This document shows, piece after piece, positions 1 through 38,670 of a stretch of DNA of 64,000 nucleotides. Under the pieces are notes generated by a model, which made no database searches, was not told the origin of the DNA, and worked only from the letters and a program-made list of their open reading frames with translations. Origin of the DNA: Betaproteobacteria bacterium (GTDB lineage: Bacteria; Pseudomonadota; Gammaproteobacteria; Burkholderiales; UBA3065); assembly GCA_027490755.1 (NCBI GenBank), contig JAIXXL010000021.1, positions 25,675 to 89,674 on the forward strand, read 5' to 3'. How positions within the stretch are numbered: position 1 is the stretch's first letter; each line of letters opens with the position of its first letter. Both the position numbers and the translations under genes were made by a program.

Positions 1-368
1 ACCGACCCGGTCAGCCTGAGCCTGCTCGGGCACTTCGACCAGTTGCTGCTGGTGGCCACCCCCGATATCGCGTCGTTGCGGCGCGCTGCCAAGGTGCTGC
101 GCATGTGGCAGGGCATGGGCCGCGACACCTCGCGGGTCGGCCTGGTCGCCAACCGGGTCACGGCGAACCCTGAGGTTCCGGTGACGCGCTTCGCCGCGAC
201 CTTGGGTTTACCGGTGTTGCGCGAGATCGCCGAGGAGTCCGAGGGCGTCAGCCAGTCCTTGCTGGAGGGCGTACCGGTGCTGGTCACCGCGCCCGCCAGC
301 GCATTCAGTCGGGCCATCCGCCACTGGGCGGCAGACCTGTCCGGTATCCATCCTGTCGAGGAGTCCTT

Positions 369-1784
<1,416 letters not shown>

Positions 1785-1793
1785 GGAGGCGTC

Positions 1794-2771
1794 ATGCAAC
1801 AGAACACGTGGCTGATGGTGGCGGTGGGGCTGGCCTTCCTCGCCGGGGTGGTCGGGGTGTTGGCCCTGGCCGGTGTCCTCGAACTGCGCTTCGGCAAGCG
1901 TGCGCGCGCGCTCGAGCGGCAGATCGGGCGGGTGCTCGAGCGTCCCGCCACGGCGATGGCGGCCGAACTGGCACGCAGCATCGAGCTGCGCCTGCCGGCG
2001 ATGCTCCAGCGCGCTCGCCAGACCCCGCTGCTGCGTGGCCTCGAGTTGCTGTTGCTGCGCTCTGGCAGCACCCGGCACCTGGTGGAACTGCTGGGCTTGT
2101 TGGCCCTCTTGGCGTTGGTCGGGCTGATCGCCGGTCTGCTGCTGCAGGCTGGCTGGCCCGGCGTGTTGCTCGCCGTCGTCTGCGCGGTGGGTGCTCCCCT
2201 CGCCTGGCTATATCTGCGCGCCGCGCGCCGGCGGGCGCGCTTCGAGGCGCAGCTGCCCGAGGCGCTCGACTTCATCGCCCGCGCGCTGCGTGCCGGCCAC
2301 GGCCTGATGGCCGGGCTGGGCATGGTCGCCAGCGAGCTTTCCGACCCGGTGGCGGCCGAGTTCGGCACCGTCTTCGAGGAGGTCAACTTTGGCGTGCCGC
2401 TCGGCGAGGCGCTGTCGCGCATGGCGGCGCGTGTCGATAGCCGCGACCTCGACTTCTTCGTCGTCGCGGTCTCGATCCAGCGCGAGACCGGCGGCAACCT
2501 CGCCGAGCTGCTCGGCGGACTTGCGGGCACCGTCCGCGAGCGCATGAAGCTGGCCGGCAAGGTGCGCGCGCTGTCCTCTGAGGGGCGCCTGTCGGCGGTG
2601 CTGATGACGGCGCTGCCGTTCGTCCTCGGCGCCATCCTCAACTTCATCAACCCTGAATACATGTCGCTGCTCTGGACCACGCCAGAGGGCCGCCAGACCG
2701 TCGCCGTGATGCTGGTGATGATGCTGGTCGGCAGCATCTGGATCCAGGTGCTGGTGCGTATCCGCGTCTGA
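1794..2771 (+). CDS. tadB: TadB-like Flp pilus assembly membrane protein (T2SS F family)
   Basis: 325-aa polytopic ORF 9 nt after cpaF. It has the T2SF-type segment 'QLPEALDFIARALRAGHGL...' and the expected position in a tad operon. Confidence 0.85.
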   Translation: MQQNTWLMVAVGLAFLAGVVGVLALAGVLELRFGKRARALERQIGRVLERPATAMAAELARSIELRLPAMLQRARQTPLLRGLELLLLRSGSTRHLVELLGLLALLALVGLIAGLLLQAGWPGVLLAVVCAVGAPLAWLYLRAARRRARFEAQLPEALDFIARALRAGHGLMAGLGMVASELSDPVAAEFGTVFEEVNFGVPLGEALSRMAARVDSRDLDFFVVAVSIQRETGGNLAELLGGLAGTVRERMKLAGKVRALSSEGRLSAVLMTALPFVLGAILNFINPEYMSLLWTTPEGRQTVAVMLVMMLVGSIWIQVLVRIRV

Positions 2772-2792
2772 GCGGCACCCCAGGAGACCCCC

Positions 2793-3731
2793 ATGAACAC
2801 TGCCCAGATGATGTTCGCCGTATCGGTATCCGCCGCATTCCTTGCGGTGGTGATGCTTACCGTCAGCGCCGCGCTGCTGTGGCGCGACCGGCGCCTCGGC
2901 GCCCGTCTGGCGCAACTCAGCGGTCGCCCGCGTCTGCCGCAGGCGTCAGGTACGCAGCCGTATGGGCGGCGCGTCGCGCGGGTGGTCGCGGCGCTATCGA
3001 ACCTGTCGGCACCCGACCGCCGGCTCCACGATTCGAAACTGCGCCTGCGTCTGGCTACGGCGGGTCTGCGTGGTGAGCGCGCGCCCTTGGGCTACTACGC
3101 AGCGCGCACCGCGCTGACGCTGTTGCTGCCGCTGCTGGCGGTTCTGGTGCTGCCGCAATTGGGGGCTTCTTTGTCGGGCACGGCGCTGGCACTGACCGCG
3201 TTCGTCATGGCGGTGGCTGGCTACTTCCTGCCCACTCTGCTGCTCGAGTTGCGCATCCGTGCTCGCCGCGAGCAGATCCGCGAGAGCTTGCCGGACATGG
3301 TCGACCTGCTGCTGGTCTGCGTGGAATCGGGACTGGCGCTGGACGCGGCCATCAACCGCGTCTCGCGCGAGATCGCCGGCCGCAACCCGGCCCTGGCCGA
3401 GGAGTTCCACCTGGCTGCGCTGGAGATCCGCGCCGGCGCACGCCGGGTGGACGCCTTGCACAATCTCGCCTCGCGCTGCGGGCTGGACGACATCAACAAC
3501 CTGGTCGCCATGCTGGTGCAGTCGGAACGGTTTGGCACCAGCCTGGGCGATGCCCTGCGCGTCCACGCCGACTTCATGCGGGTAAAGCGCATCCAGCGCG
3601 CCGAGGAGCTGGCGGCGAAGGTCCCGCTCAAGATCCTGTTCCCACTCATCCTGCTGATCTTCCCGTCGCTGCTGGTGGTCATCCTTGGCCCGGCGATGAT
3701 CAGGCTTCCGCAGTTCCTGGGTTCGCCATGA
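2793..3731 (+). CDS. tadC: TadC-like Flp pilus assembly membrane protein (T2SS F family)
   Basis: 312-aa ORF, paralogous in layout to tadB ('LPDMVDLLLVCVESGLALDAAINRV', C-terminal TM helices). It follows tadB. Confidence 0.85.
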   Translation: MNTAQMMFAVSVSAAFLAVVMLTVSAALLWRDRRLGARLAQLSGRPRLPQASGTQPYGRRVARVVAALSNLSAPDRRLHDSKLRLRLATAGLRGERAPLGYYAARTALTLLLPLLAVLVLPQLGASLSGTALALTAFVMAVAGYFLPTLLLELRIRARREQIRESLPDMVDLLLVCVESGLALDAAINRVSREIAGRNPALAEEFHLAALEIRAGARRVDALHNLASRCGLDDINNLVAMLVQSERFGTSLGDALRVHADFMRVKRIQRAEELAAKVPLKILFPLILLIFPSLLVVILGPAMIRLPQFLGSP

Positions 3732-3744
3732 GCGGGGTGACGCG

Positions 3745-4344
3745 ATGAACCACTACCCGGCCGGCGTCATCAAGGCGCTGCAGCGCATCGTCACCTCGGC
3801 GGATGGCGCCGTCGTGGCGCTGTCCATGACCACGCTGGGCTTTGCGCTGGACTGGCGCTACGGCACATCAGCGCAGACCTGGGTCCTGATCGGCTTTGCC
3901 TGGGTGCTGGTGTGGCTGGCGGCGATCGACCGCATCACGCGCCTGCTGCCCGACGTGCTCACGCTGCCGCTGCTGTGGCTGGGACTGCTCGCGCAGCTGC
4001 ACCCGGCGACGCGCACGGTGGGCGCGGAACTGGCCATCGGTGGCGCGGTGCTGGGCTACCTGCCGCTGCGTGCGCTGGAGCTGGCCTGGTTCAACCTGCG
4101 CGGCGTCGAGGCGCTGGGTTTTGGCGATCTCAAATTGCTGGCCGCCATCGGTGCCTGGCTGGGTCCGCAGGCGGCGATGCTGGTGCTGGTCGGTGGCACC
4201 CTGGCCGGCTCGGCCTGGCACCTGCTCCGCCCGATGGTGGGACGCACGCGTCTGGCGCAGAACTTTCCGCTGGGGCCTTGGCTGGTGGGGGCGGCGCTGG
4301 CGTTACTGCTGGCCGGGCCGCAATGGATGGGGTGGGGTGGCTGA
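3745..4344 (+). CDS. A24-family prepilin peptidase (TadV/CpaA type, no methyltransferase domain)
   Basis: 199-aa polytopic ORF with both aspartyl-protease blocks ('AAIDRITRLLPD' and 'GFGDLKLLAAIGAWLG'). Its last codons and TGA stop (4342-4344) lie inside the tRNA-His-derived repeat. Confidence 0.8.
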   Translation: MNHYPAGVIKALQRIVTSADGAVVALSMTTLGFALDWRYGTSAQTWVLIGFAWVLVWLAAIDRITRLLPDVLTLPLLWLGLLAQLHPATRTVGAELAIGGAVLGYLPLRALELAWFNLRGVEALGFGDLKLLAAIGAWLGPQAAMLVLVGGTLAGSAWHLLRPMVGRTRLAQNFPLGPWLVGAALALLLAGPQWMGWGG

Positions 4345-4365
4345 TGGGACTCGAACCCACGACAA
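4332..4365 (-). repeat. 34-nt direct-repeat copy of the tRNA-His 3' end (att-like island boundary)
   Basis: 'gtggggtggctgatgggactcgaacccacgacaa' is identical to 9129-9162, which covers the 3' end of the intact tRNA-His plus 1 flanking nt. Both copies have the same orientation. Confidence 0.85.
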
Positions 4366-4553
4366 ACCAGGTTCGAACGGATTAGAAGTCATTGTTCGCA
4401 TCGGTCGGCGTGATGTTCGCTGGGGGCAGCTGCGCTGCTGGCGCGCTGGCGATGAACCTATCTCGCGACGAGCGCATCGGCGAGGCTAGCCGCTGGGCCG
4501 GTCGTGGCAGCCAATTGGCATTAAACTCACTTCATTTCCGCCCGACCTGAGCC

Positions 4554-4727
4554 ATGCAGATCTATCGCGCCGCCCTCGATGCCAGTCCGATCGCCTTTTG
4601 CATCATGCGTCGTGATGACGGGCGGCTGATACACGTCAACGCGCGCCATCTGGACCCGTTCGGTGTTTCCGCCGGTGACCTCGACAGCATCGACCCGAGC
4701 CGGCTCTATCGTGTCCGCGGCGCCTGA
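4554..4727 (+). pseudogene. PAS-like N-terminal fragment of a sensor kinase (remnant)
   Basis: 57-codon ORF '[43 protein letters not shown]...' looks like the start of a PAS sensor domain. It terminates after 57 aa and overlaps, out of frame, the linker of the downstream REC-HPt ORF. Confidence 0.4.
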
Positions 4728-5775
4728 CATCAGCGGCTTCGCTGCGGTGCGCGGCGCGCGCATCCTTCTCGCCGAGGACAACCTGCTAAACCAGCAGATC
4801 GCCTGCGAACTGCTGGCTGACGAGGGGTTGGTGGTGGAGGTTGCGACCAATGGTCGCGAGGCGTTGGAGATGGCGCTCTCGCGCCGTTACGACTTGGTCC
4901 TGATGGACATGCAGGTGCCGGAGATGGACGGCCTCGCCGCTACTCGGGCGCTTCGCGAGCGCTTCAGCACCGCTGAGTTGCCGATTCTGGCCATGACCGC
5001 CAACGCGTCCGAGGCCGACCGCCGACGGTGCGCCGAGGCAGGCATGGACGCGCACATCAGCAAGCCGATCGACCCACCGCAGCTCTACGCCACCCTGCAA
5101 CGGTGGCTGCGTCCCCCGGCGCTGCCGGTGCTTGCCGCCGACGCCGGGTATGGCAGCACGGTGCCATCATCCCAGATGCTCGGCGTTGCCGGTATCGACT
5201 CCAGCCTCGGCTTGCGCCGCGCCGGCGGCAAGCCGGCGCTCTACCGCAAGCTGCTCGCCATCTTCGTGCGCGACATGGCCAGCAGTGTCGATGCCGTGCG
5301 GTCGGCGCTGGGTGCCGGCGACCGCGCGGCGGCGGTACGCGCCGCGCATTCGCTCAAGGGTAGCGCGGGGACCATCGGCGCCGGCGCCTTGGAGTCCGCC
5401 GCGGGCGCGCTAGAGGCGCGGCTTGCCGCTGGGCAAGACCCCGAGCCACTCGCGCTGGCGATGCTGGCGGCCGATCTGGCATCGTTGGTCGCCTGCATCG
5501 AGGGCGCGCTGACGACGATGCCGGCCGCGGTGCCAGCCGTTCCCGAGGGCAACGCGGCAGCGCACGGGGCCACTGCCAACGACTCGCCCGACCCGGTGCT
5601 GCTGCGCCGGGTCGAGGCCCTTCTTGCCAGCGACGACACCGCTGCTGCCGGCCTTATCGATGAACACGCAGGCGCGCTCCGGGCACAACTCGGTCCGATG
5701 CGCTTCGAAGCGCTCCGCCAAGCCATTGACGGTTACGATTTCGAGGCGGCGCTGGCCGCCTTCCGCGGCAGTTGA
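4663..5775 (+). CDS. Receiver (REC) + HPt phosphotransfer protein; C-terminal part of a hybrid sensor kinase lacking HisKA/HATPase
   Basis: REC blocks '[18 protein letters not shown]', '[14 protein letters not shown]' and 'ILAMTANA', plus HPt motif '[13 protein letters not shown]'. No kinase core lies upstream. The true start is uncertain. Confidence 0.75.
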
Positions 5776-5834
5776 ACCGTTCATCCGGGCTTGTTCAGAC
5801 CCCTACCGCCCCCTAGCCGAGACATCGAGAACGC

Positions 5835-7118
5835 ATGATCGACACTGCCCGGCCCATCATCCTTGTTGTCGACGACACGCCTGCCAACGTCACGCTGATG
5901 AGTGGTCTGCTTCAGCAGGAGTACACCGTCAAGGCGGCGACCAACGGCGAGCGCGCGCTGAAGATCGCATTCAGCGAGCCGCCGCCGGACCTCATCCTGC
6001 TCGATATCGTCATGCCGGAGATGGATGGCTATGAGGTCTGCCGGCAACTCAAGGCCAACCCGGCCACGGCGCAGATCCCGGTGATCTTCCTCACCGCCAA
6101 GTCAGACAGCGAGGACGAGGCACTCGGTCTGGCCATGGGCGCGGTCGACTACATCACCAAGCCAGTGAGCCCGGCTATCGCCAAGGCTCGCATCGGCACG
6201 CACATGTCGCTCTATCGGCACAAGCAACGCATCAAGGAGACTTTCGGCCAGTACATCGACCCACGCATTGTGGAGAACCTCATCAGCGGTCGCGCCGAGG
6301 GAGTGCCCGCAGGTGAGAAGCAGGTGGTGACCGTCTACTTCTCCGACCTGGTCGCCTTCGCCACGCTGGCCGAGCTGCTCAGCCCGGCAGGCTTGGTCGG
6401 CTTCATCAATGAATACTTCTCGGTGATGTCTGAGCCGATCCGTGCCCACAACGGTGTCATCGACAAGTACATCGGCGACTCCATAATGGCATTCTGGTCG
6501 CCGCCTTTTTCGCCGACGGCCAGCCAGGCAGCTGACGCCTGCCTCGCTGTGGCTGCGCAACTGGAGGCGCTTGACGCCTTCCGCGCGCGGGTACCCGACC
6601 TGATCGGCCTGCGCAAGGGCGTGCGCGACGTCGGCATGCGTATCGGGCTAGCCAGCGGAGACGCCATCGTCGGCAGCATCGGCTCAGATACCTCGCGCAG
6701 CTTTACGGTGATGGGTGACACGGTCAACCTCGGCTCGCGGCTGGAGGGGGCAAACAAGGTCTACGACACGCGAGTACTTATCGACGAGAACACGCGCCGT
6801 ATGGCTGGCGCTGCGATCCAGGTGCGCGAGATCGACTCGCTGTCGGTGGTTGGCAAGACCGAGCCGGTGGTCGTATTCGAGCTGCTCGGCGTAGCCGGCA
6901 GCGCGTCACCGCTGGCCGAGGGGCTAGTCGAGGCCTACGGTCGCGGGCTTGAACGATACCGCGCTGGCGACTGGCGCGCGGCGCAGACTCACTTCGCGAC
7001 CTGCCTAAGCATTGCTCCCGACGATGGCCCGACCAAGACACTGCTGGCGCGTTGCTGGCAACTGCTGCGCGACCCGCCGGCGGAGTGGGACGGCACCTGG
7101 CGGCTGGCGACCAAGTAG
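5835..7118 (+). CDS. Response-regulator receiver fused to class III adenylate/guanylate cyclase domain
   Basis: REC 'ILVVDDTPANVTLM...DLILLDIVMPEMDGYEV...VIFLTAK'. Cyclase blocks 'VTVYFSDLVAFATLAE', 'KYIGDSIMAFW' and 'GDTVNLGSRLEG'. Confidence 0.85.
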   Translation: MIDTARPIILVVDDTPANVTLMSGLLQQEYTVKAATNGERALKIAFSEPPPDLILLDIVMPEMDGYEVCRQLKANPATAQIPVIFLTAKSDSEDEALGLAMGAVDYITKPVSPAIAKARIGTHMSLYRHKQRIKETFGQYIDPRIVENLISGRAEGVPAGEKQVVTVYFSDLVAFATLAELLSPAGLVGFINEYFSVMSEPIRAHNGVIDKYIGDSIMAFWSPPFSPTASQAADACLAVAAQLEALDAFRARVPDLIGLRKGVRDVGMRIGLASGDAIVGSIGSDTSRSFTVMGDTVNLGSRLEGANKVYDTRVLIDENTRRMAGAAIQVREIDSLSVVGKTEPVVVFELLGVAGSASPLAEGLVEAYGRGLERYRAGDWRAAQTHFATCLSIAPDDGPTKTLLARCWQLLRDPPAEWDGTWRLATK

Positions 7119-7437
7119 CGCGCAGACCTCTTGATATGTGCCCGAGTCGGAGGAAAACAAAAAGCCCAAACCCCTCTGCTCGGGCCTAGCGCTTGAATCT
7201 TTTGGCCCCCGGCCTGGGCTCGAGCAAGGGACACAAGGGTTCACAGGCCGTTGCTCTACCAGCTCCAATCGCCCGGCAAGGGATCTTGAGAGTATTCGTC
7301 CGTGATGTAGAGGGCTTGGTTGGGCGGACTCTGGGTGGCGCGGATAGAGGTGTGTGGAAGACATCTACTTGTTTTACGCGGGAGAAGGGGGTAGCGTAAC
7401 TGGGCGGTTCCCCTTTAAAAGTTAAAAACTGGAGCAA

Positions 7438-7893
7438 ATGATGATTTACAAAAAAATGTTATTTATTGTGCTTTTTTTGGGATTAACAAGTGTCTCACAT
7501 GCCGGTGATCAAGATACTATGGGCAAAACCAAGCTGACCTTTACAATAGTAGCCCCCGCTGGTCTGGCTCAGGAAGGTAAACAATTGTTTCTTTCACACG
7601 CGGCGTGGATGAAGGCTACACACAGTAGAACAGGACCGAAAGCTCTGCTGAGTTATGATGTTTCAGAAATGGATGAGCTCACAAATCCAACAGACTTAAA
7701 ATCAAAGTCGACCGGGAATAAAATCTTTATACTGTCTGAAACCTATGAGTCATCTGCGGGCGTTGAAGACCATTTTGCCAAAACACCCGATTGGAAAGAT
7801 TGGCCTAAGTTTGATGCTTGGTTAAAAAAATGCAAGGTGACCAAGGCTTCATCTACAACAATTTTTAACTCACTTACTTGGGGCGGAAAGTAG
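7438..7893 (+). CDS. Secreted hypothetical protein (signal peptide)
   Basis: 151-aa ORF in an AT-rich patch. N-terminus 'MMIYKKMLFIVLFLGLTSVSHA' is a typical signal peptide. An RBS-like 'ctggag' lies upstream and a hairpin terminator follows. Confidence 0.6.
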   Translation: MMIYKKMLFIVLFLGLTSVSHAGDQDTMGKTKLTFTIVAPAGLAQEGKQLFLSHAAWMKATHSRTGPKALLSYDVSEMDELTNPTDLKSKSTGNKIFILSETYESSAGVEDHFAKTPDWKDWPKFDAWLKKCKVTKASSTTIFNSLTWGGK

Positions 7894-7920
7894 CCCGGCT
7901 TAAGTACAAAATCAAAGAAA

Positions 7921-7947
7921 GCCACTCATCGCAGTGGCTTTTTTTAA
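7921..7947 (+). terminator. Rho-independent terminator
   Basis: Hairpin 'gccactcatcgcagtggc' followed by a T-run (ttttttt), just after the 7438-7893 ORF. Confidence 0.6.
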
Positions 7948-8166
7948 ATCGGGGAATTGCCCTCAAGAAAAACTTTTCCAAGTTCGTCCGACACCTTAAA
8001 TCGGAGAGATTCGGGGGGCATTTCTCAGGAATGAATGGGCCGACGAAACTTGGCGGGTCATCCAGATTGAGAGGGCGTTAAATATAAATTATATATTGTA
8101 AATACAGGATTAGCATAAAAATAATAGCCCTTCGCGGAGACGTTCCTTTTTTAGGAGAAAAAAATC

Positions 8167-8883
8167 ATGGAACAAGCGATCGCGGTTCTATTTCCACTCC
8201 TGAGTGGTGCCCTAGTGGTGTACGGCTTTAATCGGCTCGATAGCTCTGTATATCAAGTTAAAGGCGTCGTTGGCCCCTATTTTGCTGCATTGGCTTTGTT
8301 ATTCGGGTTGTTTGCAAGCCTCACTGCGGGTGACGTTTGGCAAAGAGTCAGCAAAGCCAATGCACAAATCACCTCTGAAGCCAACGCGATGCGAACGCTC
8401 TTGCGAATCTCGCAAGCCATGGACAGATCGGATCTGCGCGTCGGCGACTTATTGCACGCTTATACTGACAGAGAAAATGCTACAGAAAAAACCATCGAGA
8501 ATACTGGTAGGGTTGATATTCAATCCACATCGGAAATCGAGGCTTTATTTAAAACAGCGATCGATCCGGCGAATTTTTCTAACAATGTGGTGCAGGCTGA
8601 ATTCTTGAAAGCCTTGGTTCAATTGCGCTCTGCCAGATTTGAACGGCTAGAGGCCAACAAAGCCCACCTGGCTATGTATAAGCTGGTTGTCCTGGGATTT
8701 TTCGGTGTGTTGACGCAAATTGCAATTGCATTATGCCACCCCGCTAACTACCGCGCACTGCTGTGTTCGGTCATGCTATTCAGCATTGCCTTTTCCTGCA
8801 CAATGGGCTTCGTCACGATGTTCGAGAACAATGAGATCTTCTCATCGCTTCTAAATTTAAATCAGTTTGAGGATATAAATTGA
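8167..8883 (+). CDS. Hypothetical membrane protein (DUF4239-like layout)
   Basis: 238-aa ORF in the AT-rich patch. It has two N-terminal and two C-terminal hydrophobic helices flanking a soluble helical middle, and 'aggagaaaaaaatc' RBS context. Confidence 0.55.
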   Translation: MEQAIAVLFPLLSGALVVYGFNRLDSSVYQVKGVVGPYFAALALLFGLFASLTAGDVWQRVSKANAQITSEANAMRTLLRISQAMDRSDLRVGDLLHAYTDRENATEKTIENTGRVDIQSTSEIEALFKTAIDPANFSNNVVQAEFLKALVQLRSARFERLEANKAHLAMYKLVVLGFFGVLTQIAIALCHPANYRALLCSVMLFSIAFSCTMGFVTMFENNEIFSSLLNLNQFEDIN

Positions 8884-8907
8884 TGGGGGCCAAGAGTGGC
8901 CTGCCCC

Positions 8908-9128
8908 TGACCTGACCCAGGATTTTCGGGCCAGTTGAAACTTGAGAGGATGGCTTCTGCCGATGAGGAGGGGCTTGTTGAGGAAGTCCCGGTTCAGTGA
9001 AGAGAGGATGGTTCGGACGTTGCGCGAGACTGTCCGAGTGCCGTTGAGCAAATGGGAGCATGCTCAACATCCTCGCCACGTCGCCCCAGGGTTTGGGTTG
9101 ACGTAAGTCTTTGTTGTTGATGGTGTTT
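8908..9128 (+). mobile_element. IS3-family (IS407-like) left-end remnant
   Basis: It starts with an IR-like 'tgacctgacccaggattttcggg...agttgaaact'. This is followed by a truncated orfA start encoding '(L)RKSRFSEERMVRTLRE', the characteristic MRKSRF(T/S)EEQ N-terminus. By eye it is roughly 80% identical over about 90 nt to the second remnant at 32881-32990 (opposite strand). Confidence 0.6.
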
Positions 9129-9129
9129 G

Positions 9130-9206
9130 TGGGGTGGCTGATGGGACTCGAACCCACGACAACCGGAATCACAATCCGGGACTCTACCAACTGAGCTACA
9201 GCCACC
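9130..9206 (-). tRNA. tRNA-His (GTG)
   Basis: The reverse complement folds as a cloverleaf: 5' 'ggtggctg' (with G-1), anticodon arm 'ccgga ttGTGat tccgg', T-arm 'gtgggttcgagtcccat', encoded CCA. Confidence 0.92.
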
Positions 9207-9347: not shown

Positions 9348-9424
<77 letters not shown>

Positions 9425-9436: not shown

Positions 9437-10471
9437 TTAGCCGTTTCTGGCCCGCCGCACCAGCGCATCGGTCAACTCGCGGGTGTTGGCCTTGCCGCCA
9501 AGGTCACCGGTGCGGATCTTGTCGACATTCAGCGTCTCGCCCACCGCCTTGCGCACGCGGGTGGCCTTGTCCTGCAGGCCAACGTGGTCGAGCATCATGG
9601 CGCTGGCCAAAATGAGCGCGATGGGGTTGGCGATGCCCTTGCCGGCGATGTCCGGCGCGCTGCCGTGCACCGCCTCGAAGATCGCTGCATCGGCGCCGAT
9701 ATTCGCGCCCGGTGCCATGCCCAGGCCGCCGACCAGGCCCGATGTCAGGTCCGAGAGGATGTCGCCGAACAGGTTGGTGGTGACCAGCACATCGAACTGC
9801 CACGGGTTCATCACCAGCTTCATGGCGCAGGCGTCGACGATGACCTCCTCGAACTCGATCCTGCCCTTGTAGCTCGCCTCGTACATCTCGCGGGCGGTCT
9901 CCAGGAAGATGCCGGTCAACGCCTTCATGATGTTGGCCTTGTGCACCACCGTGACCTTCTTGCGGCCGTTGGCGATGGCGTACTCGAACGCGTATTCCAG
10001 AATATGGCGCGAGCCCTGACGGGTGTTCACGCCGGTCGCCATGCCCACCGCGTGCGGGTCGTTGTCGATGGCGATGAAGTTCTCGAAGCCCATGTAGAGG
10101 CCCTCGAGGTTCTCGCGGCAGATGACCAGGTCGATGTTGTCGTAGCGGCCGCCGGGGATGATGGTCAGCGCCGGGCGGATGTTGGCGTACAGCTTGAAGG
10201 CCTCGCGCAGGCGCACGTTGATCGAGCGGAAGCCGCCGCCGGACGGCGTCTCGAGCGGGCCCTTGAGGCCCAGCCGGGTACGGCGGATGCTGTCCAGCGT
10301 GGCCTGCGGCAGCGGGTCGCCGGTGTCCTTGAGCGCGCCCATTCCGGCGATCTGCCGGTCCCACTCGAAGGGCGCCTCCACCGCATCCAGGACCGCCAGC
10401 GTGGCGTCCATGATCTCGGGCCCGATGCCGTCTCCGGCGATCAGGGTGGCGGGGATGATCTTGCGGGTCAT
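9437..10471 (-). CDS. Isocitrate/isopropylmalate dehydrogenase family protein (NAD-dependent IDH-like)
   Basis: Start taken at ATG 10471 ('MTRKIIPATLIAGDGIGPEI'). Family blocks 'NIRPALTIIPG', 'DLVICRENLEGLY', 'NLFGDILSDL' and 'FEAVHGSAPDIAGKG'. The upstream part of the track ORF has no homology-like content. Confidence 0.85.
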   Translation of the reverse strand: MTRKIIPATLIAGDGIGPEIMDATLAVLDAVEAPFEWDRQIAGMGALKDTGDPLPQATLDSIRRTRLGLKGPLETPSGGGFRSINVRLREAFKLYANIRPALTIIPGGRYDNIDLVICRENLEGLYMGFENFIAIDNDPHAVGMATGVNTRQGSRHILEYAFEYAIANGRKKVTVVHKANIMKALTGIFLETAREMYEASYKGRIEFEEVIVDACAMKLVMNPWQFDVLVTTNLFGDILSDLTSGLVGGLGMAPGANIGADAAIFEAVHGSAPDIAGKGIANPIALILASAMMLDHVGLQDKATRVRKAVGETLNVDKIRTGDLGGKANTRELTDALVRRARNG

Positions 10472-10585
10472 GGGGCCTTCCGTGATGGTGACGGGAACGC
10501 AGTCGAAGCGAGGCGGCGGTGCTGGGGAGCCGGTAGCATTGCGTGCCGAGCCCCCTGCAAAACCGCCCGACTCTGGCACCCCCGC

Positions 10586-13500
10586 ATGACCGCTTCCTTA
10601 CCGCCGATCAACGACACCCTCGACACCCTGGAGCCGACTTCCAGCTGGGTGGTGGAGGCCTGCGCCGGCAGCGGCAAGACCTGGCTTCTGGTCAGCCGTA
10701 TTGTGCGCCTTTTGCTGGATGGCGCGCAGCCGCGGAGCATCCTCGGCATCACCTTCACGCGCCGCGCCGCGCGCGAGATGCGGCAGCGTCTCGACGAGTG
10801 GCTGTGGCTGCTGGCCAGCGCCCCGGACGATCAAGCCGCCGCGTTTCTGACCGAGCGCGGTGTACCCGCCGAGCGGCTGCCAGTGCTGCTGCCACGCGCC
10901 CGCGCGCTCTACGAGACGGTCCTCAACGACCCGGTCGGCGTGCGCCTCGACACCTTTCATTCGTGGTTCCTTGACCTGATCGACGCGTCGCCGCTGGACT
11001 GCCCGCAGGGTGGGCGCAGCCTCGCCGAGGCCACCGGCGCGCTCGAGGATGAGGCGTGGCGGGCGCTGATGGCCGAGGCTGGCGGCGCTGCCGGGCCTGC
11101 GCCGGCCGACGGCGACGACGAGGAGGGTGCGGACCAGGGCACGCTGGCGGTCGCCGCGGCGCTGCGGCGGCTGTGGCGGCACCTCAGCCCGGCCGCAACG
11201 CGCGACCTGCTGGTGTCACTGATGCGCCAGCGCGCCGCCTTGCGCCGGCTCGACCCCGGGCGCGCCGATCTGCCCGCTGCCGCCATGGCGGCGCTTGAGG
11301 CAGCGTTTCCCTGCGCCGCCGGCGCCGACCCCTTCGGCGCCTGGCTGCAGCGCGACGCGGGCCGACTGCGCGCCCTGGCCGACGCCCTCTCCGATGCCGA
11401 CAAGCACGGGCCGACGCAACGCGACGCCATCCTCGCCGCGCTGCAGGCGCCGGCCGATGCCCGCCGGCGCACCGCGCTCTGCCGCGTGTTCCTCAAGGGC
11501 GATGACGGGGTGGCCGCAAACCCCTTTCCCAAGACCCGCCGCACGGCCTATGGCCAGGCTGGCGAGGCGGTGGCAGCGGCCTTCATCGATCTGGTGCACG
11601 CCTGCCACGCCGCACGCGAGGCGCAGGTGCACCGCGACTGGCTGGACCTGCACGCCGACCTGTTTCCGCTGGCGGCCCGCCTGCTGCAGCACTACGAGCG
11701 GGCCAAGGCGACCGCTCGCGTCATCGACTTCGCCGACGTCGAGGACCGCGCCGTGGAGGAGTTGGCCGACGGCGAACGCCACGCCTACCTGATGGCGCGG
11801 CTGGATGCCCGCTACCGGCACGTCCTGCTCGACGAGTTCCAGGACACCAGCCCGCTGCAGTGGCTGGCGCTGGAGGCCTGGTTCAGCGCGGTCCGCGATG
11901 CTGGCACCGGCCTGACCGTATTCATGGTGGGCGACCCCAAGCAGTCGATCTACCGTTTCCGTGGCGCCGAGCCCTTGTTGTTCGACGCCGCCCGCGTCTG
12001 GCTGCAGGACAAGGGTAATTTTGGCGCCGGCACCCGCCGCACCGACAAGACCCGGCGCAACCCGGCCCGTGTCACGGATCTGGTCAACGCCGTGTTCGAT
12101 GGCCGCCCGGATTTTGCCGGCTTTGCCAGCCACAGCACCGCAAGCGCCATCGACGGCAGCGTGCTGGCGTTGTCGCTGTTCGAGCCGCCGCCGAAGGATG
12201 CGGGCGCGACATCCGCCGAGGCCGCAGCTGATGGGCAGGAGCAGGACGCCGCCGGCGCGGACGCAGACGATCTGGTCTGGCGCGACCTCCTTGCCGAGCC
12301 GCGCAGCGACCCGGAAGAGTCGAGCCGGGCCCGCGAGGCGCGCGAGGTGGCGGGCTGCATCGCCGACTGGGTGGCACGCGCGCGCGTGCCGGACGGCCAC
12401 GGCGCCGACCGCCCGGCCCGTTACGGCGACGTCGCCATCCTGTTCCGGACGCGCGCAAACCACGCGGTGTTCGAGCGCGCGCTGGCGCAGGAGGGCATCC
12501 CCAGCCTGAGCGATGGCGGCGATGGGCTGCTGGACACGCTCGAGGTCAGCGACCTGCGGGCGCTGCTGCGCTGCCTGATCGACCCGTCGGCGGATCTGGA
12601 GCTGGCGCAGACCCTGCGCTCGCCCATGTTCGGCGCGCCCACGGCGGCGCTGGCGAGCCTGGCCGCGGCCGCCGCCGATGCCGGCTCGTGGTGGTCCGGG
12701 CTCGAGGCGCTGGCGGCAGGCGGTGGCGACTGGGCGGTCTGGCGCAGCCGTCTTGCCGCTTGGCGCGAGCTGTCGCAGCGGCTGCCGGTGCACGACCTGC
12801 TCGACCGCGTCTACCACGAGGCCGGTCTGCCGGATGCCTACTGCGCGGTGCTGCCACCCGCCATGGCCAGCGTGGCGCGCGCCAACCTGGATGCCTTCCT
12901 CAACCTGGCGCTGGACATGGACGGTGGCCGCCAGCCGGGCGTCGCTGCGTTCCTCGCCCGTCTGCAGGACCTGCGCACGCGCGAGTCGGATGCCGCACCG
13001 GCGATCGCGCCGCCGCTCGAGAGCCCAGACGCGGTGCGGCTGCTCACCGTCCACTCGGCGAAGGGGCTCGAGTGGCCGATGGTCTGGCTGGCCGATGCCG
13101 CGGCCAAGGGGCGCGGCGACGGCGCCGGCGCGCTGGTCAACTGGCATCCGGGCAGCCCGCGCCCGGCCTGGGTCGGCTGCCGCTTCGCCAGCGAGGGCCC
13201 CCTGCGTGGGCCGGCGGCCTTGCTGCAGCATCTGGACCAGAACCGCGAACACGCGAGCCGCGAGATGCTCAACCTGCTCTACGTCGCGCTGACGCGTTGC
13301 CGGCAGGCGTTCGGTATCAGCGCATCGGTCGGCCGCAGGCCCGCGGCCAACCACTGGTACGCCGAGGTGGCGCTGCGGTGCGCCGAACTGGGCATCGAGC
13401 CGCTCAACGCAGCGCCCCGACGCCCGTCCGGTGGTGCGGGTGCGGGGGCTGGTGCGTCGGGCGGGCAAGGTACCGTGCCCGTTGCCCCTGCGGCCCTGCC

Positions 13501-14790: not shown

Positions 14791-15266
<476 letters not shown>

Positions 15267-32529: not shown

Positions 32530-32605
32530 GGCTAGGTAGCTCAGTTGGTAGAGCATGCGATTGAAAATCGCAGTGTCGGCAGTTCGATTCTGCCCCTGGC
32601 CACCA
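32530..32605 (+). tRNA. tRNA-Phe (GAA)
   Basis: 'ggctaggtagctcagttggtagagcatgcgattGAAaatcgcagtgtcggcagttcgattctgcccctggccacca'. The acceptor, anticodon and T stems all pair. Confidence 0.92.
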
Positions 32606-32644: not shown

Positions 32645-32990
32645 GTGTACTAGCCCCAGAAGCCGCGGCTTCGCGCCGGTTCTGGCTGCGTCGCAGGGGT
32701 CGACGCATACCCTACCGTGGGACCCGACGAGGACAGCAGCGCGCAGGCCCTTCGCTGTGACAGGCACCGCACCATTGCGTAACGGACCTGTTCGCGGCGA
32801 GCCGATGCGCTCACTGTTCTTTGCGGGCATCTCCTTCATCGCGTCGATCTCAAGATTCCGATCGACCAGCAACTTCTGCAGGCTTCTCTTCACCGAACCG
32901 CGACTTCCTCATCAGCCCCTCACTGATCGGAAGGAGCCATCATCTGAAGTTTCAACTGCGCCGAAAATCCCGGGGCAAGTTGGCACTGCA
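32645..32990 (-). mobile_element. IS3-family (IS407-like) remnant with internally deleted, frameshifted orfA/orfB start
   Basis: The minus strand reads an IR-like end, then 'MRKSRFGEE'. This is joined out of frame to '...LQKLLVDRNLEIDAMKEM' (orfA C-terminus). Another frame then gives 'RREQVRYAMVR.LSQRRACALL' (orfB N-terminus). No full transposase is present. Confidence 0.6.
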
Positions 32991-33037
32991 TCGCCGAGAA
33001 GTCAGGCACGTAAAGTAGTTTTACGGCGATACCTTGA

Positions 33038-33658
33038 TCAGCGTTTGGCATCAAAGCCGACATAGCGCCAGAAAACCAGCTTCAACTCAGAAATCGCTGC
33101 AGCAAGATCGAAGTCAGGTTGTATTTGGCTGCGGACGATCACTCCATCGAGCATGGTCGATGCCACCTGCGCAGCATTGTTGATATCTAAATCACCAAAA
33201 AGGCCTTGCGTGATGCCATCGTTCAGATATTTGACGAGGATATCCCTTTCGGTGCAATAAAATCGCTGGATCCCACTCTCAATCATGTCGCGCTGGGGAT
33301 GGGTTGCGGCGAAATCCAGCATTACCTTGACCATGTACCTGATCAGATCGGCTGACTCGATGTGATTATCAAACCAAGCCTCAATAAATTCGGGTGGAGT
33401 GGTGAGCCCCTTGCACATATCTTCATAGCGCGCGATCGCTATATCTGCGGCGTGGTCTAACGAAGCTCGAAATAGCGCTTCCTTGTTCTCAAAGTAATAG
33501 TAAATCAACGCGCTGTTAACCGGGATCGAGTTGGCAATGTCCTTGATGGTCACGGTATTGAAGTCATGTCGGGCGAAATGATAAAGCGCCGCATTCATAA
33601 GTTCGCCGGCTCGATCGGGTCGTTGGCGCATTTTGGTGGTGTTCCGTTCTTTCGGCAT
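33038..33658 (-). CDS. TetR/AcrR family transcriptional regulator
   Basis: Start at ATG 33658 ('MPKERNTTKMRQRPDRAGELMNAALYHFARHDFNTVTIKDIANSIPVNSALIYYYFENKEALF' is the TetR HTH). The gene is AT-rich relative to the backbone. Confidence 0.8.
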   Translation of the reverse strand: MPKERNTTKMRQRPDRAGELMNAALYHFARHDFNTVTIKDIANSIPVNSALIYYYFENKEALFRASLDHAADIAIARYEDMCKGLTTPPEFIEAWFDNHIESADLIRYMVKVMLDFAATHPQRDMIESGIQRFYCTERDILVKYLNDGITQGLFGDLDINNAAQVASTMLDGVIVRSQIQPDFDLAAAISELKLVFWRYVGFDAKR

Positions 33659-33932
33659 AAAACAATTAAAAATCCGGATTTTGCTAGCGAAATATACGAT
33701 ACAAAGCCCAAGGCCACACTGATCCATCTCCGCACCAGAGATGGGAAGGGGCCACTGCCCTGAGGCGATGTGGGCGTCGACCTGGAACTAGCGTGAGCAA
33801 CTTGACCTCGGGGTGCTTCCCGCGAGCAGGTGCAGCCGTGCGCGAATCCCGCCCCGCTCCGGGCGCATCACAAACGGTTCAGGGGGCATCGTCACTTGCA
33901 CCGCACGGCAACCGCGTGGATCTGCTTGTGCC

Positions 33933-33961
33933 TGATTTCAATCAGCAAATGAAAGTTCATT
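33933..33961. promoter_or_regulatory. Two adjacent inverted repeats, candidate TetR operator
   Basis: 'TGATT-tc-AATCA' (33933-33944) and 'AATGAA-ag-TTCATT' (33948-33961). They lie in the roughly 530-bp tetR/permease divergent spacer. Confidence 0.3.
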
Positions 33962-34189
33962 GACGGATTAAGTAATACATGTTGTGATTGGTCTATGGTG
34001 AAGTAGTAGTAGGCCCCAACCAGCACGACTTGGCATCATCAGGCAGCACCGATTGGCTCGACACATGATCGAGCACCGTAGGGAGCAACACAGAAGATGC
34101 TGCGCAGCTGCATGTACTGACCTGCGCTTTCCTGAAGGCCTCACAAATCGATGCCTGCGCCTTTTTGGTGGTGGGCTCAGGAGGTACAC

Positions 34190-35812
34190 ATGAGCATTGC
34201 CGAGTCGGCGGGCGCGTCCGCTTCTCCCCAGCCTCACACCCTCCAGCGCAGCCTTACGTGGGTTCACGCCTTCTGGTTTGCGGCGGGAACGCCCGCGCTT
34301 GTCCTGTTCTCGATCGGAGCGATCGCTGCCACGGTAGGCAACGTGTCGCCTTTGGTGTGGTTCCTTTCGATCAGCTTCGGGTTCCTGCAGTGCTTCACCT
34401 ATGCAGAGATCGCCAGCATGTACCCCCACAAATCGGGCGGTGCCTCTGTCTACGGCGCGATCGCGTGGGTCCGCTACGGCAAGTTGCTGGGACCGATCTC
34501 GGTGTGGTCCAACTGGTTCTCTTGGTCTCCAGTGCTTGCAATCGGGACGGGCTTGGGAGCCGGCTACATTCTTACCCTGCTTTTTCCGCCCGATGCGGCC
34601 GTACACACGTGGGAAGTAACGGTGCTGCCCCTGTCCTGGTTGGGAGAAGGGCTGAAATTGCGTATCAACGCGACTTTTTTACTGGGATGGTTCCTGGTGC
34701 TGCTGGTCTTCGCGATCCAGCACCGCGGTGCCCTGAAGGCAGCGCGCGCTCAGATGATCATGGCAGTGATCGCTCTTCTTCCGCTGCTTATCATCGGCAT
34801 CCTTCCTGTGCTTCGGGGCGATATTCCGGAAGCGCACTACACACCTTTCGTCCCGCTCGCCCATGACGAAAAGGGTGCACCCGTTTCTGGCATGTGGGAC
34901 ATCGCTGGCATCACCGTATTCGCCGGCGGCCTGTTCATCGCGGGTTGGTCCACCTACGCGTTCGAGACGGCCATCTGTTACACCCGCGAGTTCAAGGACC
35001 CCGCGCGCGATACCTTCCGCGCCATCTTCACTGCCGGCATGCTCTGCATGGCTGTCTTCACCTTGGTGCCTTTCGCCTTCCAGGGCGCCTTGGGCCTCGA
35101 CGGCATGCTGGACCCAGGTATCTACAGCGGCATGGGTGTGGCAAAGGCCATGGCAGGTATCGTCGGCGGTGGTGCATGGGTGGAGGACATCATCGTCATC
35201 CTGCTCATCGTCTCCCTGTTGCTGACCGTCAGCATGGCGATGGCGGGGTCCGCGCGCACCCTTTATCAGGGCTCGCTCGACGGGTGGCTGCCCAAGTACC
35301 TGTCGCATGTGAACGAGAACGGCGCGCCGACCGCGGCGATGTGGACCGATCTCTGCTTCAACATGTTGCTGCTGATGATGTCGGACTATGTGTTCTTGCT
35401 CGCGATCGCGAACGTGAACTACATGATCTTCATCTTCATGAACCTCCAGGCCGGCTGGCTTCACCGCATCGACCGTCCGCACACCCCGCGCCCTTATCGC
35501 GCGCCGAGCCTGCTGCTGGCGGTCGGCGCTCTGCTCGGCTTTGTGAACCTCTTCCTGATGGGCATGGGCGCCAACGTCTGGGGGCAGGGCACGCTGGGGG
35601 CTGGCATCATCGTGGCGGTCCTCATCATTCCTGTCTTCCTGTTCCGCCACTATGTTCAGGACAAGGGCAAGTTCCCGGCGCAGCTCGCCGAGGACATGCG
35701 TCCGGTGGGTGCCGATGAGGAGACTGTTGCACCCCGTGCCGGCGTGCTTCCCTATCTGGCGCTTGCAGCCGGCGGCGGCGCTGTCGTCTGCGGCTACCTT
35801 CTTTCAGCATGA
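34190..35812 (+). CDS. APC-superfamily amino acid/amine permease
   Basis: ATG 34190 after 'caggaggt'. The 540-aa ORF has about 12 hydrophobic segments, and 'FTYAEIASMYPHKSGGASVYG' matches the APC signature region. Confidence 0.8.
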   Translation: MSIAESAGASASPQPHTLQRSLTWVHAFWFAAGTPALVLFSIGAIAATVGNVSPLVWFLSISFGFLQCFTYAEIASMYPHKSGGASVYGAIAWVRYGKLLGPISVWSNWFSWSPVLAIGTGLGAGYILTLLFPPDAAVHTWEVTVLPLSWLGEGLKLRINATFLLGWFLVLLVFAIQHRGALKAARAQMIMAVIALLPLLIIGILPVLRGDIPEAHYTPFVPLAHDEKGAPVSGMWDIAGITVFAGGLFIAGWSTYAFETAICYTREFKDPARDTFRAIFTAGMLCMAVFTLVPFAFQGALGLDGMLDPGIYSGMGVAKAMAGIVGGGAWVEDIIVILLIVSLLLTVSMAMAGSARTLYQGSLDGWLPKYLSHVNENGAPTAAMWTDLCFNMLLLMMSDYVFLLAIANVNYMIFIFMNLQAGWLHRIDRPHTPRPYRAPSLLLAVGALLGFVNLFLMGMGANVWGQGTLGAGIIVAVLIIPVFLFRHYVQDKGKFPAQLAEDMRPVGADEETVAPRAGVLPYLALAAGGGAVVCGYLLSA

Positions 35813-36594: not shown

Positions 36595-36624
36595 ATCACC
36601 CCCGACGAACGCAAGGAGAACACA

Positions 36625-37986: not shown

Positions 37987-38003
37987 TCGCCTCGAGCTGG
38001 CGA

Positions 38004-38588: not shown

Positions 38589-38670
38589 CCGACACCTTGC
38601 GACCGCGCCGGACGTGCGGTCCGGCGGTATGGCTCGCGTACAATCGGGCATCGCCAGACAGGGCCCTGAG

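Follow-up and report, generated by a model that had tools for sequence, protein, structure and literature searches.

In islands inserted into tRNA genes the integrase gene normally follows the regenerated tRNA, and a study by Williams from 2002 is said to define crossover sublocations within such tRNA genes. The signature used by Islander to recognize tDNA-islands consists of an intact tRNA or tmRNA gene together with its own displaced fragment, which lies in the same orientation and on one replicon with it, and a tyrosine integrase gene is required inside the interval (PMC4383910, Hudson, Lau & Williams 2015). A second class of relevance is that of the CIMEs, which are decayed ICE or IME remnants that retain attL and attR and have lost the genes for integration and transfer; these were defined in Firmicutes as ICE/IME derivatives and move by accretion with the aid of a helper (PMC5704250).

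The locus described here lies at the tRNA-His gene in a 64-kb stretch of betaproteobacterial DNA (the window). It resembles the Islander islands in possessing a regenerated intact tRNA with a displaced 3' fragment in the same orientation at the far end, in occupying a site that is variable among relatives and unoccupied in one of them (L089), and in having a content that is partly foreign in composition. Its identity block, which begins shortly ahead of the T arm and continues to the 3' end, is like that of the 'T-stem region' class of att sites. It is unlike the Islander islands in that the interval has no tyrosine integrase, is very small (4.8 kb) and devotes half of its cargo to a core-type chromosomal operon of related bacteria. 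With the CIMEs it shares the structure, i.e. attL and attR are kept in the absence of integration and transfer genes; however, no conjugation-gene relics, helper or accretion partner are seen at this locus.

Prophages represented by IMG/VR contigs use the same tRNA gene, with the same 3' block as att site and direct repeats at their ends. About 75 stand-alone fragments of the tRNA-His 33-nt block were recovered from these contigs, several of which carry two copies on one strand; the block is in wide use as an att site. However, the prophage block spans about 47 nt and extends to the anticodon loop (the anticodon-centered class), whereas that of the window starts after the anticodon stem. All of the examined prophage fragments carry GATTGTGATTCCNG before the block, whereas the fragment in the window is preceded by unrelated sequence; given that the prophage fragments reach the anticodon loop, they represent a different att class. 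The interval further differs from these prophages in having neither phage genes nor a match in the phage collection. We consider the locus to be the remnant of a tyrosine-integrase-mediated insertion at tRNA-His whose integration module was later deleted, and assign this reading a probability of about 0.7.

The tRNA-His repeat and its flanks

The 34-mer GTGGGGTGGCTGATGGGACTCGAACCCACGACAA is present in exactly two copies in the window (Table 1), both on the same strand, with 0 mismatches and a spacing of 4797 (repeat family D8), in agreement with the earlier note, which had described a 34-bp perfect direct repeat of the tRNA-His 3' end. It corresponds to the last 33 nt of tRNA-His, including the CCA, and 1 nt downstream; the part within the intact gene comprises the variable loop, T arm, 3' acceptor strand, discriminator and CCA. 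ARAGORN and Rfam place the intact tRNA at 9130-9205 of the minus strand, with G-1 at 9206 being read from the sequence, and the tRNA-His of the relative L001 is 100% identical to it. The gene heads a His-Arg-Pro tRNA cluster, downstream of the isocitrate/isopropylmalate dehydrogenase-family gene.

Table 1. Features of the tRNA-His island and its flanks (positions in the window)
Positions	Strand	Feature	Basis
3745..4344	+	A24 prepilin peptidase, last gene of Tad/Flp pilus operon	Pfam Peptidase_A24
4332..4365	-	Displaced tRNA-His 3' fragment, distal attR-type copy	34/34 match to 9129-9162
4366..4553	.	Distal island end, 188 bp, no recognizable gene	Six-frame Pfam: no match
4554..4727	+	Hybrid histidine kinase 5' remnant, PAS fragment, 57 codons	Pfam PAS_8, E=9e-7
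4711..5775	+	Same hybrid kinase, 3' remnant, REC + Hpt	Pfam Response_reg + Hpt
5835..7118	+	Response-regulator receiver + class III adenylate/guanylate cyclase, intact, 427 aa	Pfam
7204..7283	-	Decayed tRNA-like stretch at GC-rich/AT-rich boundary	Local alignment
7438..7893	+	151-aa protein, N-terminal signal-peptide-like segment	ORF
8167..8883	+	Bestrophin-like membrane protein, 238 aa	Pfam PF14023, E=3e-27
8908..9046	+	IS3-family left terminus (TGACCTG...) and first ~25 orfA codons, ~140 bp	Nucleotide alignment
9047..9128	.	tRNA-proximal island end, 82 bp	No ORF, no Pfam match
9129..9162	-	Repeat copy within intact tRNA-His, attL-type	tRNA positions 44-76 plus 1 nt
9130..9206	-	Intact tRNA-His(GTG) with encoded CCA	ARAGORN, Rfam tRNA 66 bits
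9248-9324		tRNA-Arg(TCT)	ARAGORN
9348-9424		tRNA-Pro(TGG)	ARAGORN
9437-10474		Isocitrate/isopropylmalate dehydrogenase-family gene	Pfam Iso_dh

The left chromosomal flank is formed by the prepilin peptidase gene, whose Tad operon context is seen in a relative (L085) and whose C-terminus was compared with those of the relatives. The first 13 nt of the left repeat copy double, on the + strand, as the last two codons and stop of the peptidase (GG*). In L089 the end of the same peptidase gene overlaps the intact tRNA-His, and in L225/226 there survive 13 nt of the block, just those needed for the peptidase stop codon. The sole match of the distal island end among the fetched loci is a weak one of 52 nt to L098, and this region may be an att arm or may belong to the sequence upstream of the kinase operon; the tRNA-proximal end has no match to any fetched locus.

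State of the site in related genomes

The earlier note had proposed an attL/attR-type insertion and suggested a comparison with closely related genomes in search of an empty site. Such an unoccupied site is found in L089, which displays 90.0% nucleotide identity to the window over 4369 nt: here the peptidase gene and the 34-bp block run straight into the tRNA-His body with no insertion, in a contig that stops 11 nt past the repeat. This lends support to the proposed insertion, in which an integrase is the likely agent, and the uniform carriage of the interval by relatives, named in the earlier note as evidence to the contrary, is not seen. The closest species representative, L001, was rejected as an empty site, as a cytochrome b561 gene and two YceI genes lie between its tRNA-His and peptidase genes; no tRNA fragment is present at this junction. 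The junction likewise holds cytochrome b561 and two YceI genes in L227-229, BrnA-like genes behind the 13-nt remnant of the block in L225/226, and a third arrangement, again not empty, in the most distant relatives. The presence of different DNA at the same junction in these relatives indicates a recombination hotspot. We found no related island that combines an integrase with this 33-nt identity block.

Cargo of the island

All the contents listed in the earlier note, namely a kinase remnant, a receiver-cyclase, an AT-rich patch and an IS fragment, are present. The region 4572-4708 aligns with the beginning of the L098 gene for a ~1000-aa kinase, and 4745-5098 aligns with L098 8918-9271; relative to L098 there is an internal deletion of ~1.78 kb between 4708 and 4745, which removes the rest of the PAS domain, the HisKA domain and the HATPase domain. 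Consistent with this, Pfam recovered PAS, REC and Hpt alone and did not detect the HisKA + HATPase_c catalytic core; the relatives possess intact kinases of ~1000 aa. The REC-Hpt ORF, with a start at 4663 or 4711 and its end at 5775, is in a different frame from the PAS remnant and is matched in NCBIfam by the C-terminal third of BarA/ArcB/TorS. The cyclase has full-length orthologues at 84-88% amino acid identity, and the homology of this region to the relatives stops at the cyclase stop codon. In related betaproteobacteria the kinase and cyclase constitute a two-gene operon in core chromosomal neighborhoods. The GC-rich half of the island is near the host's in composition, yet displaced from this core context, and is atypical as island cargo in that it is a copy of a core-chromosome operon of related betaproteobacteria. 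PADLOC additionally matched the cyclase to PycC (E=7e-27) over the cyclase domain only, the protein having an N-terminal receiver domain; this match probably reflects shared class III cyclase homology. No cyclic-nucleotide-binding effector was found among the neighbors of the cyclase with Pfam, NCBIfam or PADLOC, and an anti-phage role in a Pycsar system was rejected because the orthologues pair with the hybrid kinase in core contexts.

The AT-rich patch, at about 7250-9100, has a G+C content of 40-50% versus about 69% in the flanks, a comparison that the earlier note had suggested. The tRNA-like stretch at its boundary aligns with tRNA-His from the D-loop to the T-arm with a score of 16 (shuffles 8.1+-1.6, 0/500) and is called as a tRNA by ARAGORN at a relaxed threshold only; it has no Rfam match at E<1 and a fold z of -0.5, i.e. 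it does not fold like a tRNA. An interpretation of this stretch as an internal att site or tRNA-His remnant was rejected, given that the acceptor stem and discriminator differ and that there is no Rfam match. The best internal match to the tRNA-His block, with 15/34 mismatches, is at chance level and was discarded as a mark of accretion; given that no decayed internal block is present, tandem accretion of two islands is rejected.

The 151-aa protein belongs to no Pfam, NCBIfam or PADLOC family and is called as a gene in Logan contigs. The closest homologues of the bestrophin-like protein show 85, 78 and 74% amino acid identity, followed by others at about 50%; their contigs have a G+C content of 37-44%, and the gene lies there in an ordinary chromosomal setting, with nothing shared beyond the gene itself. 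These two genes of the AT-rich patch, the relatives of which are found in low-GC bacteria, are likely to derive from a low-GC lineage. The AT-rich part has no match in the phage collection, and in the plasmid collection its sole match is the IS fragment. This fragment shows 73-74% nucleotide identity to an element of the IS3 family carried by Burkholderia glumae plasmids (L087), the translation of which yields full OrfA/OrfB. The alignment with the left end of that element takes in the terminus TGACCTG..., with the TG start of an IS3-family inverted repeat, then the leader upstream of orfA and ~25 initial orfA codons. Unlike active IS3 elements it retains about 140 bp, with no transposase, right end or target duplication: the alignment ends after ~25 codons, and the OrfA/OrfB (DDE) transposase is absent. 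The fragment is too short to give a Pfam match. The left end of this element is cut off 82 bp from tRNA-His; a second decayed IS3-family copy is present in the window at 32660-32980. The characterization of the island as eroded and mosaic is thus upheld by the kinase deletion, the cut-off IS and the combination of foreign and relocated genes.

Integration and mobility genes

The absence of an integrase, also claimed in the earlier note, was borne out by Pfam searches of the ORFs and six-frame Pfam searches of the intergenic pieces of the interval, which recovered no PF00589 or other recombinase domain. Even with Pfam at E<=10 on translations of every intergenic piece, no integrase or transposase remnants were found in these pieces. 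The interval similarly has no detectable excisionase, integrase pseudogene or conjugation- or phage-gene remnants, no phage Pfam domains, and, in any frame, no relaxase, T4SS or oriT-associated gene or fragment. In the rest of the window no integrase was found among the scanned ORFs (Pfam, with the remaining translations read by eye), and the remaining ORFs read as housekeeping genes. A low-GC patch after tRNA-Phe, which encodes TetR, a permease, creatininase, a GS-like enzyme, Dcd and RadA, was considered as a second island or source of a trans-acting integrase and rejected, there being neither a tRNA-Phe repeat nor an integrase.

Origin of the island and alternative explanations

In the favored scenario, a mobile element with the last 33 nt of tRNA-His in its att site would have recombined with the chromosomal tRNA-His, most likely by means of a tyrosine integrase with a crossover in the T-arm region. 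The element-borne copy would have restored the intact tRNA, and the original tRNA 3' end would have moved 4.8 kb away to the distal repeat copy, where it continues to provide the last two codons and stop of the peptidase. Later the integration module would have been lost, probably together with most of the backbone. An IS3-family element would have inserted near the tRNA-proximal end, with a deletion from inside the IS reaching to 82 bp from the tRNA; such an IS-associated deletion would have removed an integrase encoded by the tRNA. In this scenario what is left is a remnant that can no longer move: its att repeats are intact, it has no recombinase, and it carries a patchwork of a betaproteobacterial-type kinase-cyclase operon and two genes from a low-GC lineage.

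The view of this insertion as old, put forward in the earlier note, is not supported, in that the two repeat copies are still identical, the AT-rich part shows no amelioration and a relative at 90% identity lacks the insertion; erosion may have taken place before arrival or may have been rapid. The probability of no change in the 21 unconstrained nucleotides since the split from L089 is 0.05 at the operon-wide four-fold rate and about 0.27 at the lower peptidase rate (15/132; about 1.3 expected changes), and molecular-clock dating of the insertion is therefore suggestive only.

Alternatively, the island might still be mobilizable, as a CIME-like element or satellite that already lacked an integrase on arrival and is moved in trans by the tRNA-His-specific integrase of another element in the cell. 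Both att repeats are perfect despite the absence of every recombination gene, elements that keep attL and attR in the absence of integration and transfer genes have been described as a class that a helper can move (PMC5704250), and tRNA-His-targeting integrative elements are abundant. Nevertheless, we regard this as unlikely: the window has no integrase, the IS cut off close to the tRNA speaks for the deletion of an integrase that was once present, neither an oriT nor a relaxase nor any further mobilization function was found, there is no internal att copy that would indicate accretion, and no related copies of the element are seen elsewhere, the exact island proteins being confined to one sample series. 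A functional integrase-less satellite of uncultured Rhodocyclaceae-like betaproteobacteria, which is excised and inserted in trans and shuttles the kinase-cyclase operon between species, is a quite doubtful proposition; if it were true, a single 34-bp identity would keep both the tRNA and the peptidase stop codon.

Somewhat less credible than continued mobilization is the passive import, by homologous recombination, of a fragment comprising the Tad operon, island and tRNA cluster, the att-flanked remnant having formed in a related genome. The divergence from L089 drops beside the junction: the four-fold-site difference is 11% in the peptidase versus 26% across the three Tad genes that precede it (Fisher p=0.0002), and identity is 93-97% in the last 900 bp versus about 88-90% overall. 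This suggests a separate recombination history of the abutting DNA, and the cargo operon is of a related-betaproteobacterial type. However, in a gene of 600 bp the low divergence could also be due to chance or to stronger constraint, no genome carrying the island is known as a donor, and the site-specific event is just shifted to the donor, with the repeat still needing an integrase-type origin.

An assembly artefact, whereby a 4.8-kb segment of another replicon or organism, or a free one-att circle, was threaded between the flanks, is very improbable. Logan contigs assembled independently at k=31 match the window with 100% identity but have a break inside each of the repeat copies; in these assemblies the segment is a separate 4823-bp contig with the same 30-mer at both ends, and the flank contigs end in the repeat. 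The k=31 graph fits an integrated island and an empty site with a circle equally well, and given these breaks the integrated arrangement rests on the source assembly. The segment and both flanks also share the conserved tRNA-His 3' block, which is identical in very distant bacteria. However, typical reads and the last k-mers used by metagenome assemblers exceed the 34 bp of the repeat, so that read support for the source contig is to be expected; contigs of the flanks and of the island are found together, at 100% identity, in SRR16126863 and SRR16126868; and the GC-rich half comes from the broad lineage to which the host belongs. Finally, that the repeat arose by chance or belongs to a dispersed family that has nothing to do with integration, the latter raised in the earlier note, can practically be dismissed, as none of 100 dinucleotide-preserving shuffles gave any 34-mer match, no further copies occur in the window at <=3 mismatches, one of the two copies coincides exactly with the 3' end of a functional tRNA and a relative has the empty site.

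Implications

As the probable remnant of an integrase-mediated insertion, the island is an ordinary, well-known kind of genomic scar, and its significance beyond annotation is little. In annotation the kinase is to be treated as a pseudogene and the IS as a relic, and programs that detect islands by way of an integrase will overlook this tRNA-His locus. The locus presents a core-type two-component/cyclase operon as island cargo, and its att identity block keeps two overlapping genes at once, namely the tRNA and the Tad prepilin peptidase with its stop codon. The tRNA-His site itself emerges as a hotspot of integration, for which four different states are seen in related uncultured betaproteobacteria.

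The tRNA-His repeat and its flanks

The interval is delimited by a 34-mer (GTGGGGTGGCTGATGGGACTCGAACCCACGACAA) of which the window has exactly two copies, 4332-4365 and 9129-9162; they share one strand, show no mismatches and have a spacing of 4797 (repeat family D8). As read from the sequence, position 9206 is the G-1 of the tRNA-His gene, and its encoded CCA ends at 9130; tRNA-Arg(TCT) and tRNA-Pro(TGG) follow (ARAGORN, Rfam). Given this placement, G-1 and CCA, the right copy corresponds to tRNA positions 44-76 (variable loop, T arm, 3' acceptor strand, discriminator and CCA) plus one downstream base, and the direct repeat of the tRNA-His 3' end described in the earlier note is confirmed as written. 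The left flank is a Tad/Flp pilus operon (Pfam), seen in full in another contig (L085). The left repeat copy contains the last two codons and the TGA stop (4342-4344) of its prepilin peptidase gene, which accordingly terminates inside the tRNA-His 3' end on the opposite strand, the terminal GG* being supplied by GGTGGCTGA (window 4332-4344; 5612-5624 in the related contig L089; ~5268-5280 in a further relative, L225). In relatives the peptidase C-termini are GG*, GP*, PG*, PS*, TGAA* or TGAD*. The right flank continues past the three tRNAs with an isocitrate/isopropylmalate-dehydrogenase-family gene, a long UvrD/AddA-type helicase ORF and then housekeeping genes, and the flanks have a G+C content of ~0.64-0.73.

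Features of the island and its immediate flanks
Feature	Position	Strand	Basis or remark
CpaF-type ATPase	369-1784		Pfam
TadB	1794-2771		Pfam
TadC	2793-3731		Pfam
A24 prepilin peptidase	3745-4344		Pfam; ORF end ...QWMGWGG*
PAS fragment, 57 codons	4554-4727		Pfam
REC + Hpt	4663/4711-5775		Pfam; different frame from PAS fragment
Receiver + class III nucleotide cyclase, 427 aa	5835-7118		Pfam; intact
Non-coding stretch	7119-7437
tRNA-like stretch	7204-7283	-	D-loop, anticodon-loop and T-arm motifs
151-aa protein	7438-7893		signal-peptide-like N-terminus
Bestrophin-like membrane protein	8167-8883		PF14023
IS3-family left terminus + first ~25 orfA codons	8908-9046		alignment to Burkholderia glumae plasmid copy
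tRNA-His(GTG)	9130-9205	-	ARAGORN + Rfam

Content and origin of the interval

The interval (4366-9128, 4763 bp) has a G+C content of 0.61-0.75 up to ~7250 and of 0.40-0.50 over ~7250-9100. In its GC-rich half, the REC-Hpt part resembles the C-terminal third of BarA/ArcB/TorS-type hybrid kinases, and the receiver-cyclase has full-length orthologues with 84-88% amino acid identity. In every context recovered an intact hybrid kinase of ~1000 aa (PAS-HisKA-HATPase-REC-Hpt) lies directly upstream of the cyclase, and the surroundings are core genes, with neither a tRNA nor an integrase: peptidase M90, recJ, rlmL, homoserine dehydrogenase and groES at one locus, mutS and hsp33 at a second, cco/fix genes at a third. 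At the DNA level, window 4572-4708 aligns to the first ~140 nt of the intact kinase gene and 4745-5098 to its REC region; therefore ~1.78 kb, comprising the rest of PAS, HisKA and HATPase, has been deleted, and the kinase remnant of the earlier note was correctly recognized. Homology to the operon of the relatives stops exactly at the cyclase stop codon. These alignments indicate that the GC-rich half is a displaced copy of a chromosomal operon from related betaproteobacteria. Identification of the cyclase as a Pycsar component was rejected, the match being one of domain-level homology only and the genomic context speaking against it.

In the AT-rich half, the bestrophin-like protein has homologues with 85, 78 and 74% amino acid identity, followed by others at ~50%. 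The contigs of such homologues that were examined have a G+C content of 37-44% and ordinary chromosomal neighbors, which marks this half as foreign to a genome of ~69% G+C; the closest shares only that gene with the window (76% nucleotide identity). The 151-aa protein matched no known family. A sub-threshold Rfam match to the sRNA STnc100 at 7806-7950 (+) (29 bits versus a gathering score of 47) covers essentially the terminator-like hairpin after this ORF and probably does not represent the family. The decayed tRNA-like stretch lies exactly at the border of the two halves, in the orientation of tRNA-His and with a non-His acceptor end; its likeness scores 16 versus 8.1+-1.6 in shuffles (0/500), yet the stretch fails to fold as a tRNA and nothing in Rfam matches it.

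The missing integrase and the IS relics

Neither integrase, excisionase, relaxase nor phage protein was detected in the interval, among ORFs and translated intergenic pieces even at E<=10, and the rest of the 64-kb window yielded no integrase either. The integrase gene of a tDNA island usually adjoins the regenerated tRNA. Here that position is held by the left end of an IS3-family element, which is cut after ~140 bp, 82 bp short of the tRNA; it shows 73-74% identity to the Burkholderia glumae plasmid copy, which has complete OrfA and OrfB in translation (MKKNRFTEEQMVTILRE... versus LRKSRFSEERMVRTLRE). Most simply, an IS would have landed close to the integration module, and a deletion that began inside the IS would then have taken the module out.

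A second decayed copy of the same family (~32660-32980, minus strand) lies ~55 bp downstream of tRNA-Phe (32530-32605), with frameshifted orfA/orfB remnants and 84.5% identity over 97 nt to 8910-9005. The 3' flanks of tRNA-His and tRNA-Phe thus each bear a relic of this IS family, the two pointing in opposite directions. The low-GC patch directly after tRNA-Phe (33000-39000, G+C 0.51-0.64) encodes a TetR regulator, an amino-acid permease, a creatininase, a glutamine-synthetase-like enzyme, Dcd and RadA; neither a tRNA-Phe repeat nor an integrase accompanies it, and it may be an older, ameliorated acquisition. The remaining ORFs of the window are housekeeping or biosynthetic genes. The cluster at 51600-63600 (G+C 0.58-0.68) looks like an accessory biosynthetic locus, with three large ATP-grasp proteins (cyanophycin-synthetase-like), one of them fused to an AMP-binding enzyme domain in the translation as read by eye, an NAD-dependent epimerase and a glycosyltransferase.

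The unoccupied site and the age of the insertion

A TadC scan of metagenomes recovered one contig, L089 (JACCDS010150723.1), which over 4369 nt is 90.0% identical to window 1-4365. The terminal 45 nt of L089 match window 9129-9173 exactly: the peptidase gene (...QWMGWGG*) with the 34-bp block is followed directly by CCGGAATCACA, the tRNA-His anticodon arm, and not by the island sequence ACCAGGTTCGA. As judged from this junction, on a contig ending 11 nt past the block, L089 has the unoccupied site in a close relative, and the empty-site comparison proposed in the earlier note comes out positive: tRNA-His is directly joined to peptidase and block with no insertion.

The only species-representative genome with the same dehydrogenase-Pro-Arg-His arrangement is L001, a betaproteobacterial MAG whose nucleotide identity is ~79% and whose tRNA-His is identical. 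There, too, the Tad operon follows downstream of tRNA-His, but a different 2-kb segment separates the two (cytochrome b561 and two YceI genes; 11079-13082, and 10601-12595 in L227), and no tRNA fragment adjoins the peptidase (...WMGWPS*); L227-L229 are arranged likewise. In L001 and L227, 10 of the ~15 nt that follow the peptidase MGW codons still agree with the block, a very weak hint that the filler, too, arose by an ancient insertion here. Among further relatives found via the peptidase (81-91% amino acid identity), the block is cut down in L225 and L226 to its first 13 nt (GTGGGGTGGCTGA), which suffice to encode GG*; beyond lies unrelated DNA carrying BrnA-like antitoxin genes. The event in L225 and L226 resembles the one in the window but looks older. 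The L224 contig stops inside the block. These differing arrangements define the peptidase/tRNA-His junction as a hotspot with at least four states in the clade.

Coding constraint does not apply to 21 of the 34 nt in the displaced fragment, yet the fragment matches the tRNA copy throughout. With the operon-wide neutral divergence from L089 (23.5% at four-fold sites, JC 0.28), an insertion older than the L089 split should show ~3 changes (P(0)=0.05), while the lower local rate of the peptidase gene predicts ~1.3 (P(0) ~0.27), so that the clock alone is not decisive. Taken with the un-ameliorated 40-50% G+C patch and the 90% identical relative without the insertion, it favors an insertion younger than the L089 split. 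The claim that the island is old thus finds no support; the kinase deletion and the IS truncation may have occurred in earlier hosts or quickly after insertion.

ALTERNATIVES

Movement of the island in trans as a CIME-like element would agree with its structure, as such elements by definition retain att sites and have lost integration and transfer genes (PMC5704250); however, no conjugation relics, helper, internal att copy or other copies of the element were found, and this route is unlikely. Passive import of the whole island by homologous recombination draws on the observation that L089 differs at 11% of four-fold sites in the peptidase gene versus 26% in the three upstream Tad genes (Fisher p=0.0002), with an identity of 93-97% near the junction (window 3500-4365) versus ~88-90% overall. 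This hints at a separate history of the DNA abutting the island, and 3500-4365 may be a recombination tract next to the tRNA; but such import merely shifts the site-specific event to a donor, and we consider it distinctly improbable. A misassembly, or an empty site coexisting with a circle, is compatible with the k=31 contigs, which break 30 nt into each repeat copy, as would equally be the case for integration; as normal reads and final k-mers exceed the 34 bp of the repeat and the pieces are found together in the same samples, it is very improbable. A chance or dispersed repeat is excluded for this window, given no further copies at up to three mismatches in the 64 kb and matches in 0/100 dinucleotide-preserving shuffles.

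tRNA-His as an attachment site

A scan of IMG/VR for the 33-nt block recovered at least 120 loci, which were classified by ARAGORN: among the matches listed, 46 belong to complete tRNA-His genes and ~75 to isolated 3' fragments, and several contigs carry two copies on one strand in an attL/attR pattern. One such contig, L146, has two fragments 10 kb apart on one strand (4883-4915 and 14899-14931), each preceded by a near-identical ~50 nt, and may represent a small element, tandem or satellite, at the tRNA-His of another organism. Nearly all fragments listed reach on to the anticodon loop (...GATTGTGATTCCNG plus block), corresponding to the anticodon-centered class in Islander terminology (PMC4383910). 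Unlike these prophage fragments, the identity block of the window begins just past the anticodon stem and fits the T-stem class, and the interval has no match in the phage collection. Thus, tRNA-His is a much-used target, but the element in the window stands outside those prophage lineages.

Like tDNA-integrated genomic islands, the locus has the repeat, its orientation, an unoccupied site and foreign content; it differs in lacking an integrase gene, which Islander demands inside the interval (PMC4383910). The most fitting label is therefore that of a decayed, CIME-like island remnant. Nothing in it falls outside known biology; mildly noteworthy are the four-state hotspot, the presence of a core-type signaling operon in the cargo of an island, and the fact that one att identity block preserves the tRNA as well as the stop codon of the pilus peptidase gene that overlaps it.
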